From a virus (Duplodnaviria > Caudoviricetes), in the IMG/VR virus record IMGVR_UViG_3300014205_000220, positions 4,867 to 68,866 of that record: 64,000 bases of DNA; one strand, 5' to 3'. This document shows, piece by piece, positions 5,285 to 16,050 of the stretch; positions within the stretch are counted from its first letter, which is position 1; each line of letters starts with the position of its first letter. The position numbers and the translations under genes are program-made. A model generated the notes under the pieces. The model did no database searches. It was not told the origin of the DNA and was given only the letters and a program-made list of their open reading frames with translations.

Positions 5285-5326
5285 TGATAAGTAATACTTT
5301 TATTAATCATACTGACTTGTTAGGCA

Positions 5327-5602
5327 CTATTGTTGCAATTTACGGTCTTGTACAACTTTATTAGCACCTATTAAACTTTCTGTTGCTGCATCAAACCCTT
5401 CTTTGTATGCTTGCAACAACAGTTCGCTTTGCTGCCTAACATGTTGTATAGGTAATAATTTTAAAAATAGTCCCTCCAATTCAGTAGCAACGCTCGGTGC
5501 GTCTGCTGCATCTCCATCAACATCTTTTCTTGGTATCTTACTTACCACTTTGTAGATTTGTTCCCATACCTCGCTTCTTTGTATTCTGTTACTTTGTTCC
5601 AT
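5327..5602 (-). CDS. Cassette 1 hypothetical protein
   Basis: ORF track. Stop abuts the GTTAGGCA core and the frame reads through the R''/L'' arm. Confidence 0.65.
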   Translation of the reverse strand: MEQSNRIQRSEVWEQIYKVVSKIPRKDVDGDAADAPSVATELEGLFLKLLPIQHVRQQSELLLQAYKEGFDAATESLIGANKVVQDRKLQQ

Positions 5603-5666
5603 TTTATTAAGTTTTATCTGTTAATTATTTTTAAAATTACATACCCATACACCCAACCGTTATAGC
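5433..5666 (+). repeat. attC-like site 1 (long loop carrying the 5' part of ORF 5327-5602)
   Basis: R'' 5433-5440, inner arms 5446-5469 and 5626-5650 (near-complementary), R' GTTATAGC 5659-5666. Confidence 0.75.
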
Positions 5667-5672
5667 CAATGC

Positions 5673-5972
5673 CTAAAGAGAGTTCAGTCTATCAATTTCG
5701 GCAGCTATCAATGCACCAGCCTTTTGAAGTTCTCGTACACGATTTTCAGGCGTTCTTTTTAGCCATTTAAGTTCAAAAGGCCATATATGTAAGTGCATAT
5801 CGTTCCCCCATTCATTGTCTATAAAATCAATCGTGTCTTCGGTCATTGCATAATAAGCTGCTGCATTAGCAAGTTCACCTTCTTTATGCTCTGCATCGTG
5901 TTCGGAAGTCCATCCTTCTTTTTCAATTTGTCGCTGCCTTTCTTCGGCAATTAATTCAATTCCAGTTTTCAT
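5673..5972 (-). CDS. Cassette 2 conserved phage hypothetical protein (ERQRQIEKEGWTSEHD family)
   Basis: Motif recalled from many phage proteins, function unknown. Confidence 0.75.
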   Translation of the reverse strand: MKTGIELIAEERQRQIEKEGWTSEHDAEHKEGELANAAAYYAMTEDTIDFIDNEWGNDMHLHIWPFELKWLKRTPENRVRELQKAGALIAAEIDRLNSL

Positions 5973-5996
5973 AATTAAATTTAGTTTGTGGCACTA

Positions 5997-6093
5997 GCTA
6001 TAACAAAGTGTATAGCAAATAGCCTATTAATATTCAGTTTTTAATTCGTTGGTTCGTGCTTCGGCTACTTGCCATACACAAACCGTTGTGGTG
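5997..6093 (+). repeat. attC-like site 2 (97 bp, canonical size)
   Basis: R'' 5997-6004, arms gtgtatagcaaatagcc 6008-6024 / ggctacttgccatacac 6063-6079, R' 6085. Confidence 0.85.
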
Positions 6094-6104
6094 CATTAAA
6101 ACGA

Positions 6105-6392
6105 CACCACAACACGGTATATAAATAATAAATAATGCTAATCAACATCGTGCTTCAAACACTCGCCATTGGTATGTTTTATATATTGGCGTTTAGTCAT
6201 ATTAGCAATCCATCTATCATCCCTACACGCAGGGTTTTTACAATATTTTTGGTTTCCAGAATCCATTTCAAATTCTTCATTGCACCAAATACAGTTCTTT
6301 AAAATACCTGCTTCGCTTATGTTTTCGTGTTTGTGTTGAAAATATCCCATATCGCATTATTTACTATTCATATACCATCTACGTTATAAGCT
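6105..6392 (+). repeat. attC-like site 3 enclosing the complete ORF 6138-6350
   Basis: 23-nt arms 6116-6138 and 6354-6376, complementary at 21 of 23 positions; R' 6383. Confidence 0.8.
6138..6350 (-). CDS. Cassette 3 small zinc-binding protein (inside the attC loop)
   Basis: CIWC...YCKNPAC motif. Confidence 0.65.
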   Translation of the reverse strand: MGYFQHKHENISEAGILKNCIWCNEEFEMDSGNQKYCKNPACRDDRWIANMTKRQYIKHTNGECLKHDVD

Positions 6393-6395
6393 ATG

Positions 6396-6674
6396 TTAAT
6401 CTCCTACTATCAGAAAATCTATTCTGCATTTAGTAACAATGAATTTACCTTCTTTTTCTAATTGATTTCTAACGGCTTTTCGTGCTTTTTCTATATTGGT
6501 AGCACAAACTAATTGAGTTAACTTCATCGGTTCTGAAAAGTTAATTCCATTTCTAATTGAAATTGGCATACTTGCGTAAATATTGTCTTTTTCTTTTTCT
6601 GAATAAAAATATTCTGAATGTGACATATAGTATTTTTTACCAACTGTAGGTAAATTATCATTTAAATCTTCCAT
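6396..6674 (-). CDS. Cassette 4 hypothetical protein
   Basis: ORF fills the space between R' 6383 and R'' 6703. Confidence 0.7.
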   Translation of the reverse strand: MEDLNDNLPTVGKKYYMSHSEYFYSEKEKDNIYASMPISIRNGINFSEPMKLTQLVCATNIEKARKAVRNQLEKEGKFIVTKCRIDFLIVGD

Positions 6675-6702
6675 TTATATTTGTTTTATAAATCAAAAAC
6701 AC

Positions 6703-6839
6703 AGCTTATAACAATCGCTATATTTCAGCTTTAGGTTAGTGTTTAATTTAATGTTCTGTAATTCTTGGTTTAGTCTTTTTCAACCGAAACGCCTTTTGTG
6801 TTTGTTCAGCCGAAATTATAGCGATGGACGTTACAAGCA
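6703..6839 (+). repeat. attC-like site 4
   Basis: R'' 6703-6712, arms 6714-6730 / 6808-6825, R' 6830-6839. Confidence 0.85.
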
Positions 6840-6842
6840 ATG

Positions 6843-7313
6843 TTACACAACATCATGAATAGAAATTCCTCGACCTTCTTTAATGTGATTAAACACATCG
6901 AAATTCCATTCAAGAAACCTTTCAATTATACCAAATTTTACTCCTTTATAATGGATAAAATTGTTTTGAAATTCAATAATATCTTCTTTTGAGTGTTTAA
7001 ATGCGTTGTAATTAATAGGTACGAACAAATTTTCGTTAATGTTTATTTCGTTTGTTAAATCACTTTTTGGTCTAACAATTATTTTAACATCATCAAATTT
7101 TACATCGTATTGATACTCGCCGTTAGCAATAGTCATTTCTTCTTCTCGAAGTTCAACTATTTTGCAATCATTGTGTAATATCTCACGTTCATCGTCAAAA
7201 TATTGAAATAAAAAACTATTAGCCATTGCTATTGATAAATGTTCTAAAGTCAAAACACTGCTTGTAACAGTCGCTTTGTCTAATGGCTGGGCTTGGTTAT
7301 TTTCTGAAATCAT
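6843..7313 (-). CDS. Cassette 5 hypothetical protein
   Basis: ORF track. N-terminus (QPLDKATVTSSV) is encoded by the att arm. Confidence 0.7.
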   Translation of the reverse strand: MISENNQAQPLDKATVTSSVLTLEHLSIAMANSFLFQYFDDEREILHNDCKIVELREEEMTIANGEYQYDVKFDDVKIIVRPKSDLTNEININENLFVPINYNAFKHSKEDIIEFQNNFIHYKGVKFGIIERFLEWNFDVFNHIKEGRGISIHDVV

Positions 7314-7398
7314 AATTTTTAAATTTATTGTTAGTGTATTTTTGTGAAGTCTAGTCTTAAATCGTCGCCACTAGACAAAGTGACCGAACGTTAGCACC
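7259..7398 (+). repeat. attC-like site 5 (loop contains the start of ORF 6843-7313)
   Basis: R'' 7259-7268, arms gtcgctttgtctaatggc 7270-7287 / gccactagacaaagtgac 7367-7384, R' GTTAGCACC 7390. Confidence 0.85.
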
Positions 7399-7402
7399 AA
7401 TA

Positions 7403-7627
7403 CTACTTTAGTGCTTCTAATTCATTTTTTACTTCGCTCCAAACTGTAATAGCAGATGGTGTTTCATCATCGTAAGTGTCCCAATAAGTTTTTGTTGGGT
7501 TTTCTTCCAAAATCTTATCTACAATTAGCAATGCAATCTCAATACATTCATCGTAGAATAAAGGTGCTTTTAAACTTATTTCTTTTAACAAGTTATCTGC
7601 TTTTAATTTCACTTCTTCTTTTGTCAT
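7403..7627 (-). CDS. Hypothetical protein after the last GTT core
   Basis: ORF track. Confidence 0.65.
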   Translation of the reverse strand: MTKEEVKLKADNLLKEISLKAPLFYDECIEIALLIVDKILEENPTKTYWDTYDDETPSAITVWSEVKNELEALK

Positions 7628-7680: not shown

Positions 7681-7705
7681 AACTGTTCGGAATTTCCGAA
7701 CAGTT
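7681..7705. repeat. Perfect 10-bp-stem palindrome
   Basis: aactgttcgg-aattt-ccgaacagtt, intergenic. Confidence 0.8.
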
Positions 7706-7732: not shown

Positions 7733-8245
7733 TTACCATCCAATCAACTTCCCAACAAAATCTTTATCAAACCAAGCAAAGAAATCTTCAAGGCTGTCAA
7801 ATCCATCGTTCTGCGCCAACCTTTCGTAATGTTTGGGGTGTAATGCCACATCATCGATTAAAATGCAAGGAAGTGCCTTAAACTGATTGCAAATGGCACT
7901 ATCGTAGGTTATCTGAATCTTGTTAACTGACTTGACTTTTAGAACAGGTGCAAAACGGAACGATTTTTTGGTTCTTGCGCCAATGTAAAAATGAATCTTC
8001 ATCCCTATTTTCCAACGGTCTTTACTATCTCTACGGATTGTGGTGTTCTTTTCCTTACCGCTAAAGTTACCGTTCATAGCGTAGGTGTCGTTGTCTTTGA
8101 AATACTCAAAGAACTCTTTGTTCTCGTTCAGTACCTTCCAATGGTTCTTTGCGATGCCTTTCCAAATCTTTTCTGGAAACATTGTTGGAAGTCCTGATAG
8201 CTTGCCTTTGTCATTTGGGAATACTGTACTGAAATTTAATATCAT
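7733..8245 (-). CDS. ASCH-like (PUA-superfamily) domain protein
   Basis: TTIRR...WKIGMKIHFYIGAR...LAQNDGFDSLEDFFAWF matches the ASCH signature. Confidence 0.7.
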   Translation of the reverse strand: MILNFSTVFPNDKGKLSGLPTMFPEKIWKGIAKNHWKVLNENKEFFEYFKDNDTYAMNGNFSGKEKNTTIRRDSKDRWKIGMKIHFYIGARTKKSFRFAPVLKVKSVNKIQITYDSAICNQFKALPCILIDDVALHPKHYERLAQNDGFDSLEDFFAWFDKDFVGKLIGW

Positions 8246-14197: not shown

Positions 14198-14387
14198 GTT
14201 TTTATATTGGTTTTATTAGTGTTTTAAGATGTTGAATACATATAATAGTTATAGTTAATGCCTTACTCGAACGCTTTATAAAAAAGGCACTAACAATAAC
14301 ACCGTGTATAAAGCAGTCTTTAGGTCGTTTCATTTCTGCAATCTCATTTCCTTTCCCGATGAAAAAACAAAAAGCCATTGCGCTTTT

Positions 14388-14804
14388 TTAGTTACTTACG
14401 GTTAATTCCTCTCCCTCAAAAAAATAAAATAGGTTTTGCAATTGATGAACGTATTTTATAAGAAACTCAATATCGCAATTGGCTATTTTGAAAATTTCAC
14501 AATCAAAGACGCCTATTCTTTTGTTTTCCCAAACAAGGCTAAAACTGTTTTCTTTAAATCCTAGTTTCTTTAACCAATCTTCGGTTAAAATTATTCCCTC
14601 AAAACTTTCAAAAATTTCAACGTTTGTATCTTTAGTTTCAATCCAGATTGAATGAGTTGTATATCCAACATAATCTAATAAAACGACTTGGCCTACTGCC
14701 TTATCCATTACTAATTCAGAGTTTTCATAATCCCAATCACATTCAAGGCCTTTCTCATAATTTCCAACTACGTAGTTACCTATTCTTAATTCGTTTGTTT
14801 TCAT
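14388..14804 (-). CDS. Hypothetical phage protein (MKTNELRIGNYV...KYVHQLQNLFY family)
   Basis: Probable start is the ATG at 14804; common Bacteroidota phage motif. Confidence 0.75.
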   Translation of the reverse strand: MKTNELRIGNYVVGNYEKGLECDWDYENSELVMDKAVGQVVLLDYVGYTTHSIWIETKDTNVEIFESFEGIILTEDWLKKLGFKENSFSLVWENKRIGVFDCEIFKIANCDIEFLIKYVHQLQNLFYFFEGEELTVSN

Positions 14805-14808
14805 GTTT

Positions 14809-15090
14809 TTAATTGTAAATTCCTTTTTTTGCATCGCCTAAAGTTTCATACCACAAATCTTTAGTTTCTTCATCAACATTCCACCAAATAATATCTTCTT
14901 TTTCCTTTTCAATTTTTTTAATTTCCTTTTCTGAAAGTCCTTTTTTTAATTCCTCAATGAGTGATAATATTTTTTGATTTTCCATTTTGTTATTAATTTT
15001 TAGAGTTATTACTGTGTCGCATTTTGACATACATATTTGAAAATAACCTCTTTGGTTTCCAATAGTCTTCCATTCGTGATTACATTTCAT
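14809..15090 (-). CDS. Hypothetical protein (probable start MKCNHEW)
   Basis: The track ORF extends to 15177 across the att arm; the first ATG inside the loop is at 15090. Confidence 0.55.
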   Translation of the reverse strand: MKCNHEWKTIGNQRGYFQICMSKCDTVITLKINNKMENQKILSLIEELKKGLSEKEIKKIEKEKEDIIWWNVDEETKDLWYETLGDAKKGIYN

Positions 15091-15194
15091 ATTTAGTCTT
15101 TTAATTGCACTTCTATTTTTTTTTTTGGCTGTTTTGCCGAGTTGATTTTTAGCCCAGACCGCTTCATACACGATCAACGTTGTAGGTAATAAGC

Positions 15195-15437
15195 CTACTC
15201 ACTTTCTGCTACAATTGGAGATACATAAACAACAATGCTGTCGTAGTTTTCCAATTCTGTCGATATATGATGGCAAACATTTTCAACTAAAAATGCCCTT
15301 GTACCAAACTCGTTTTTCCGCTCCCAATTATATGGTAACATCCATATCGTTTCCCCAATTCTTGGCACATAGTTTTTTGTCGATGTTCCAATTGATTCTT
15401 CAGAGTTTTCTAATTCTACAATAAATTCAATATTCAT
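15195..15437 (-). CDS. Cassette 7 hypothetical protein
   Basis: ORF between R' 15179 and R'' 15482. Confidence 0.7.
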   Translation of the reverse strand: MNIEFIVELENSEESIGTSTKNYVPRIGETIWMLPYNWERKNEFGTRAFLVENVCHHISTELENYDSIVVYVSPIVAESE

Positions 15438-15481
15438 AATTTCAGTTTTTAGTTTTTAGTTTTCAAATCCGTAGGCTTACA

Positions 15482-15534
15482 TACCTACAACAATGTATAA
15501 ACGGCATTAAAACGACCGTTTATACTCACCGTTA
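15482..15534 (+). repeat. attC-like site 7 (minimal, 53 bp)
   Basis: TACCTACAAC-aat-GTATAAACGG-cattaaaacga-CCGTTTATAC-tcacc-GTTA. Confidence 0.85.
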
Positions 15535-16050
15535 AGTTACATCCATTTCATAAACATCGACTTCATAGCCTTTGTTCCTTTTAGCAAATTCGTTTACGTG
15601 AAATTCAAGGCTCATAGAGTGACCTATTTTGAGTTTCAGTAGTTTGTAAAGTTCTCTTTTGTCGATTTGCTCCCCATTGAGCCACGCTTTGTAGAAGTAG
15701 CCGTAATTGGTTATAGAAACTTTTAATTTCTGCGGTTCTGAATTTACGTGTTCTGCGTAAAGATGACCTGACATATCAATATCGAAGTTCTGTTGTCTTA
15801 ATTCGTCGAATGATTCTCTTGTTGCTCCCATTGTGTGTTATTTATGTGTTATTAAATTATAAAACGATACTAAACGTGCGTGATACGGTAAAAAAAGTTT
15901 ATTCCCCTTATTGCTCAATAAAGCGTTTATATGAGATTCAGCGAACGTTCTCTGATTTTCTACGATAGTACATTGATCCAATCTTATCGGTTCGTTACTG
16001 AACTCTGTATGCTCTACAAAGTGTATTAATTGTTTAAGTGTTGGGTTCAA
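15532..16050 (-). CDS. Two hypothetical ORFs (15532-15831, 15838-16050)
   Basis: ORF track. The stop of the first overlaps the GTTA core at 15531. Confidence 0.65.

Follow-up and report, generated by a model that had tools for sequence, protein, structure and literature searches.

What does it mean when reading frames begin inside an attC-like hairpin and continue through its arm, and which segment travels as a unit when such hairpins stand in a row? These questions are raised by a phage locus in the window analysed here, a 64,000-nucleotide stretch of the 68.9-kb record, with terminal repeats, of a flavobacterial-type phage. The window contains two arrays of short units, array 1 at 5319-7397 and a second at 14293-15540. 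The arrays are part of a long operon running leftward, among whose products are an Erf-like annealing protein, a Mu Gam-like protein, an O/DnaD-like replication initiator, a DNA methyltransferase and an HTH regulator. Read on the plus strand, array 1 comprises five units, each opened by a GTT core and closed by a perfect 8-10 nt complement ending in AAC, after which an imperfect hairpin follows. Five consecutive perfect core pairs of 8-10 nt are found in 5319-7268, and more occur in the related loci L029, L030 and L013 (L numbers denote relatives, which are mostly short metagenome contigs). Each AAC core pairs with the GTT core that opens its own cassette, the complementarity being shifted one unit along the array. 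The core consensus RYYYAAC/GTTRRRY is not followed: one of the six GTT cores of array 1 (at 5319) fits GTTRRRY, and the other five have in common only GTT and a mostly purine fourth base.

The ORFs of both arrays lie on the minus strand. That all cassette ORFs do so had been proposed in a first-pass annotation, and this holds for every array-filling ORF of at least 60 aa:

5327-5602, 5673-5972, 6138-6350, 6396-6674, 6843-7313 and 7403-7627, minus strand: array ORFs of at least 60 aa

Pfam returned zero hits among ten array and flanking ORFs, and the cassette ORFs match only PHROGs families of unknown function. The 70-aa ORF 6138-6350 (minus strand) fills the loop of hairpin E and weakly matches (E = 1e-4) the zinc-finger part of a PHROG HNH endonuclease family. 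Rfam, which has no attC model, gave no match in the window at gathering thresholds. The neighbouring gene 7733-8245 has no relatives in viral contigs, so there is no syntenic sister phage to compare. Just upstream of array 1 in the gene sense, 7681-7705 is a perfect 12-nt palindrome followed by a T-rich run, terminator-like by score on the plus strand only.

Hairpins of this kind are far more frequent than expected by chance. Requiring core partners, we counted 101 AAC..GTT hairpins in the window's 4-17 kb region plus 17 loci, versus 1 in shuffled sequence. It was the core-partner requirement that removed the noise; a scan for cores only (169 hits versus 92 in shuffles) and a duplex scan that ignored core partners (385 versus about 190) were both too noisy and were rejected. 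Loops reach about 880 nt and can contain genes. A profile scan of viral contigs recovered nothing beyond loci already found, and a scan of genome contigs yielded one MAG contig only. At 49 curated sites, sense-strand folds contain 77 G·T pairs versus 5 A·C mismatches, and the sense duplex is the more stable in 42 of the 49 (p = 2e-8). The open frame is longer on the sense strand in 37/42 bodies, and in about 35 of 38 high-confidence sites the spacer on the AAC side, of about 5 nt, is longer than the one on the GTT side, of about 2 nt. Read-through ORFs, defined as starting inside the hairpin and continuing for at least 20 codons past GTT, occur at 19 of the 49 sites, with GTT in phase 0 in 18 of the 19; counted by distinct hairpin family, phase 0 is found in 13 of 14.

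One read-through ORF lies at the end of array 1, where the features are as follows:

5319..5326, minus strand: distal core of the tail unit, sense TGCCTAAC, a perfect complement of the core at 5433-5440; here the 344-bp mobile unit and array 1 both end
5327..5602, minus strand: ORF of 91 aa; residues 1-55 are the N-module, encoded by the loop and 3′ arm of hairpin D, and residues 56-91 the tail module, encoded by the small body unit
5433..5440, minus strand: in-frame core, sense GTTAGGCA, whose GTT is codon Val55; exchange point between N-modules and tails
5441..5469, minus strand: short spacer (5441-5444) and sense 3′ arm of hairpin D (5445-5469), the arm coding for codons 45-54
5470..5625, minus strand: 156-nt loop of hairpin D, holding the ATG (5600-5602) and codons 1-44
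5626-5651, minus strand: sense 5′ arm of hairpin D, in the 5′ UTR
5652-5658, minus strand: long spacer of hairpin D, hypervariable among near-identical copies
5659..5666, minus strand: core closing the upstream body 5659-6004, sense GCTATAAC; the mobile unit 5319-5662 ends within its AAC

On the plus strand, hairpin D is seen with the AAC core 5433-5440 on one side and the GTT core 5659-5666 on the other. As the first-pass annotation had stated, the ATG of ORF 5327-5602 is in the loop and the frame reads through the arm and core (LPIQHV|RQQ). The hairpin is conserved, with 93% of cells paired among 14 sequences versus 41-52% when partners are slid, and three pairs of the stem show compensatory changes. 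Third-position entropy in arm codons 45-53 is 0.40, versus 0.89 elsewhere (p = 0.017). This extra constraint on synonymous sites is, as judged from codon variation, the dual constraint expected of a segment that both codes and forms a stem. The arm is judged to be translated because the N-module is conserved as a protein with a fixed start, and all 74 N-module homologues open with the same ME.. motif. An AlphaFold model of the ORF (pLDDT 79) predicts three helices, with the junction falling just past a break at residues 50-51; the window's own tail is modelled as a single long helix. One relative (L019:246-481) carries an N-module copy that has kept the coding 3′ arm and lost the 5′ arm, with an AAC core 22 nt ahead of the ATG, and there the arm codons persist without a hairpin.

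The second read-through ORF occupies the opposite end of the array:

6830..6838, minus strand: distal core of body 5, complement of the core 7260-7268
6843..7313, minus strand: ORF of 156 aa, laid out as a 15-codon leader (loop and arm of hairpin C), Val (GTT core) and body; translation might alternatively start at an in-frame TTG, 7251-7253
7260..7268, minus strand: in-frame core, sense GTTACAAGC, read V-T-S
7269..7397, minus strand: hairpin C, with arms 7270-7287 and 7367-7384 and a loop (7288-7366) that holds the ATG 7311-7313 (minus strand); the long spacer is 7385-7389, and the core 7390-7397 (GTT on the plus strand) has no partner and marks the array end

The geometry claimed for this ORF by the first-pass annotation also holds, LDKATVTSS covering the arm and core, and a start in the loop with translation across the arm is probable from comparison of its relatives. 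Seven divergent leaders of the family all keep the frame open from an ATG placed in the loop, and none of these variants was called in the TTG-start form. Homologues that lack the hairpin begin four residues before LEHL, which is the position of the TTG at 7253. Leader types and body types reassort within this family.

A third case comes from the second array:

14202..14378, minus strand: third read-through ORF, 58 aa
14293-15186: site F, a giant hairpin

ORF 14202-14378 begins within the loop of hairpin F and continues in phase 0 over the arm and the core 14293-14300. In the same array, site G (15484-15540) resembles the published P12002L_attC1 at L030:2489-2541 in having the same 11-nt loop and similar arms, and this loop recurs at L030:~1607-1617. 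The body unit 15175-15492 and L029:1346-1624 have only their two ends in common (30 + 45 nt, 96-100% identical); these ends include the cores, and the middles differ. Many tail modules likewise have conserved first and last residues around a variable middle, with ends that are complementary in the DNA.

A search with ORF 5327-5602 returned 82 proteins, 74 of which contain the N-module, and their comparison indicates that the in-frame core is itself a place where protein modules are exchanged. In the largest N-module cluster, a fixed Val (GTT) links the module to at least 22 tail clusters, and the tail cluster of the window is found with seven N-module clusters. Of 80 proteins, 71 have Val at the junction, and in 69 it is followed by Ser or Arg, which bears out the earlier suggestion that att DNA seeds recurrent peptides. 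At the DNA level the break falls at the sense GTT, and the short spacer remains with the hairpin. Each of the seven tail types with an identified partner core lies between complementary cores of its own, and several use the TAA of a CTAAC core as their stop codon. Many of the alternative tails attached to the N-module are rich in Cys, with zinc-ribbon-like paired CxxC motifs (P0025, P0033, P0038, P0042, P0044, P0067, P0069 and P0070).

These observations revise two statements of the first-pass annotation. It had held that neither ORF crosses the crossover point; neither does reach the GTT core of the plus strand, but the internal core 5433-5440 is itself an exchange point, and the statement holds for one of two classes of junction. 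It had also held that each ORF stays intact as a mobile unit, which is not supported, as relatives whose hairpins are 92-96% identical have unrelated tails; in L010 and L013, for example, the hairpins are 96% identical and the tails unrelated. The combination present in the window is probably the ancestral one, since homologues that lack both core and hairpin (L012, L015 and L017) encode one continuous protein resembling the window's N-module plus tail. L029 has two copies of one leader hairpin, of which one precedes a body with its own start codon and the other is fused in frame to a body that has none. The near-identical leader-bearing hairpins of that locus (1621-1740 and 2193-2313) diverge solely in the 5 nt immediately before GTT, and each copy's 5 nt are the complement of the variable portion of the core that comes next. 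Tentatively, and as something we regard as possible while falling a little short of probable, hairpin sites could resemble phase-compatible exon borders in DNA, at which any N-module could be joined to any C-terminal module by site-specific recombination to give combinatorial small early proteins.

Establishing which way the units face requires information beyond the cores. The first-pass annotation called the cassettes inverted because their ORFs oppose the GTT-to-AAC direction, yet polarity cannot be read from the cores, because the arrangement [GTT core-body-AAC core][hairpin] looks the same from either strand, and each gene on the minus strand likewise runs from a GTT core to an AAC core. 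The argument from cores alone thus fails, but the idea of inversion is upheld in that the unit seen in relatives is a hairpin followed by a body on the folded strand. Two features within the window are polar. One is the spacer adjacent to GTT on the plus strand, which is always the longer; the other is the stem mismatches, which are A·C on the plus strand and G·T on the gene-sense strand. Pairing and stability at the 49 sites show the strand selected to fold to be the gene-sense (bottom-like) strand.

Copies of the 344-bp unit 5319-5662, 95% identical, are present in L010, L011 and L029, where the DNA to either side is unrelated. In sense order it consists of AAC, long spacer, hairpin D, GTT core, tail and closing AAC core, and both of its ends fall at sense AAC cores in four contexts. 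Hairpin C together with body 5 recurs in L001 with identical cores, arms that have diverged yet still pair, and different flanks, and L013 and L014 share hairpin D and a tail between unrelated flanks. Among 16 close pairs, which are pairs of loci with hairpin D at least 90% identical, DNA upstream of the hairpin is homologous in none, whereas the tail is homologous in 6 and unrelated in 10; past the tail, homology is found in only 2-4 of the 6 tail-sharing pairs. Both arrays that are seen complete at the tail end finish in a body without a hairpin. These comparisons support, at the level of sequence, a usual co-travelling unit of hairpin plus the body downstream in the gene direction, mirroring classical cassettes. 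In the long spacer (window 5652-5658; L010:~614-620; L029:~2480-2486), 3 of 7 positions differ among copies whose hairpin and tail are 95-99% identical. In the pairs L013/L014, L020/L024 and L025/L026, the long spacer is identical and the upstream cores are different. The variability of the long spacer among near-identical units is not explained by clean crossover at AA|C.

We consider it on balance probable that the ORFs are genuine genes belonging to a cassette system of Flavobacteriia-type phages that is bounded by hairpins and resembles an integron array with mirrored polarity. Each junction, in the gene sense, leads from a body-specific AAC core and a spacer of about 5 nt into an imperfect stem with its loop and return stem, and then through a spacer of about 2 nt to the next GTT core. 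A start codon lies in the loop at about 40% of sites, from which the ORF crosses the 3′ arm and, with GTT as Val, enters the body. Both sides of the hairpin are natural exchange points, so that N-terminal modules carried by hairpins and C-terminal tails carried by bodies are recombined in frame. The exchange would occur by site-specific recombination of folded single-stranded DNA, possibly of either strand, with a recombinase for the folded sites that is presumably not phage-encoded; expression would come from the phage's own leftward early (replication/recombination) transcript. A search for tyrosine recombinases (PF00589) found no match, and no adjacent IntI plus attI was found, in the 68.9-kb phage or four related phage records. 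On the minus strand between 4060 and 8709 there is no Bacteroidota-type -7 motif. We likewise obtained no support for the hairpins as intrinsic terminators, given the absence of terminator-like T-runs at them, or as carriers of sigma-70 or Bacteroidota promoters.

Several points weigh against the mirrored arrangement. On the folded, gene-sense strand it is the AAC arm that carries the surplus unpaired bases, as on classical top strands, and by the classical rule alone this would imply canonical gene orientation. The intact hairpin-plus-body units could reflect selection for whole genes instead of the position of the crossover. Neither a recombinase nor an excised circle or transcript was observed. 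An array or CALIN of ordinary polarity would have crossovers only at the sense G|TT and cassettes made of a body plus the downstream hairpin, the ORFs that start in loops being chimeras or over-called starts. The location of the surplus bases agrees with it, as do ORFs that stop just before or inside the AAC core preceding a hairpin, like those of classical cassettes, and the frequency of exchange between hairpin and body, as seen in the ten close pairs with unrelated tails. Within one such cassette, however, the DNA upstream of the hairpin would not be expected to be unrelated in all 16 close pairs, nor would the unit 5319-5662 be bounded by sense AAC cores in four contexts. Arrays that finish in a body without a hairpin, folding that favours the sense strand and bodies that lack their own start codon also fit poorly, and we regard ordinary polarity as quite improbable.

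A somewhat better alternative, still unlikely in our estimation, is that the hairpins act mainly as RNA elements of an early polycistronic mRNA, as stems for processing, stability or translation control that enclose starts, and that the mosaicism arose by relaxed homologous recombination (Erf-like annealase, Gam) at short conserved stems. The G·T bias would equally fit hairpins that function in mRNA, since it appears on the transcribed strand as strong G·U-type pairing, and start codons within loops, Erf-like annealing and Mu Gam-like proteins in the same operon, and the failure to find a recombinase in five phages all suit this explanation. The homologous P12002L attC1, which IntI1 did not recombine, suits it as well. 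Neither RNA function nor homology-driven exchange, on the other hand, predicts 8-10 bp complementary cores with invariant GTT/AAC on every body, or breakpoints at cores where unrelated partners have only 3-5 nt in common, and the hairpins show neither a terminator-like T-run nor a promoter motif. That the overlaps are chance open frames in AT-rich DNA, with untranslated arms, is very improbable. The 15-codon leader of ORF 6843-7313 is short and low in complexity, and its hairpin-less homologues start where TTG 7253 lies, as chance would allow; in contrast, the N-module of ORF 5327-5602 is conserved as a protein with a fixed start in 74 sequences, all seven diverged leaders of the 6843-7313 family are open with no TTG-start call, and phase 0 prevails in 13/14 distinct read-through families.

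The usual picture of an integron cassette is a whole promoterless gene followed by its recombination site. In these arrays the site precedes the body, often supplying the start codon and an N-terminal segment, and a second exchange point is placed inside the reading frame in fixed phase. If the mirrored cassette system is real, phage recombination hairpins would shuffle protein parts as well as genes, and an integron-like system would perform natural, in-frame protein shuffling on the coding strand. Engineered attC-in-ORF systems would then have a counterpart in nature, and the recurrent junction peptides (Val then Ser or Arg; hydrophilic leaders) in small Bacteroidota phage proteins would be explained as well. 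A practical consequence is that attC tools that orient sites by classical rules will mis-orient arrays of this kind or catch only some of their sites. We found no published description of mirrored polarity or of in-frame shuffling in the literature.

The closest described relatives of the locus are CALINs, clusters of attC sites without an integrase, in virulent phages, among them Polaribacter phage P12002L (Qi et al. 2023, PMC9892861). HattCI called P12002L_attC1, which is homologous to site G of the window; the attC1 oligonucleotide of that study shows the same architecture and an identical 11-nt loop, and it was the only one of six phage sites without verified IntI1 recombinants (Qi et al. 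2023). The P12002L locus has the same alternation of bodies and hairpins, the same relative gene strand and no integrase, and its gp37 starts in a hairpin loop, as the ORFs do here. Qi et al. (2023, PMC9892861) call two P12002L sites only, in divergent directions, and describe no mirrored unit, loop-starting ORFs or module shuffling; classical orientation rules may lie behind the divergent calls.

The likeness to classical integrons extends to the overall design, including arrays of small promoterless genes, a folded imperfect hairpin with unpaired spacers between inverse cores ending in AAC/GTT, and cores complementary to the far end of their own cassette instead of to an array neighbour. Unlike in classical attC arrangements, the genes here are on the folded strand and the hairpin heads the cassette instead of ending it; where a classical cassette has its ORF on the top strand with its own attC after it, the order here is hairpin and then ORF body. 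In classical attC sites the top strand carries its extrahelical bases on the AAC arm (Nivina et al. 2016, PMC5027507), and by this rule the surplus bases on the AAC arm of the folded strand differ from those of classical bottom strands. Loops of up to about 880 nt, exchange at both sides of the hairpin and the absence of IntI are further differences.

Among known att-encoded ORFs that pass a crossover point, ORF-11 of attI1 comes closest as a precedent; ORF-11/ORF-18 of class 1 integrons is a short ORF inside the att site (review PMC8876359). Like ORF-11 (PMC8876359), the leaders described here have their own start in an att site, cross the crossover point and serve the downstream cassette, and a start inside the att site followed by passage across the exchange point is found for ORFs 5327-5602, 6843-7313 and 14202-14378 and at 19/49 sites. 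ORF-11, however, lies in attI and not in a hairpin, is stopped by a TAG within the core and acts via translational coupling, whereas in these phages the core is translated in phase 0 as Val and the leader becomes part of the cassette protein. Fused class 1 integron cassettes (PMC4670013) likewise have one ORF spanning two cassette-derived parts; such fusions are rare and result from loss of attC, while here the hairpin is intact and fusion is systematic. Structure-specific sites within reading frames have a further parallel in synthetic attC sites placed in coding sequence (Nivina et al. 2020, PMC7439510). Those sites are engineered, whereas the arrangement in these phages is natural and widespread in metagenomes.
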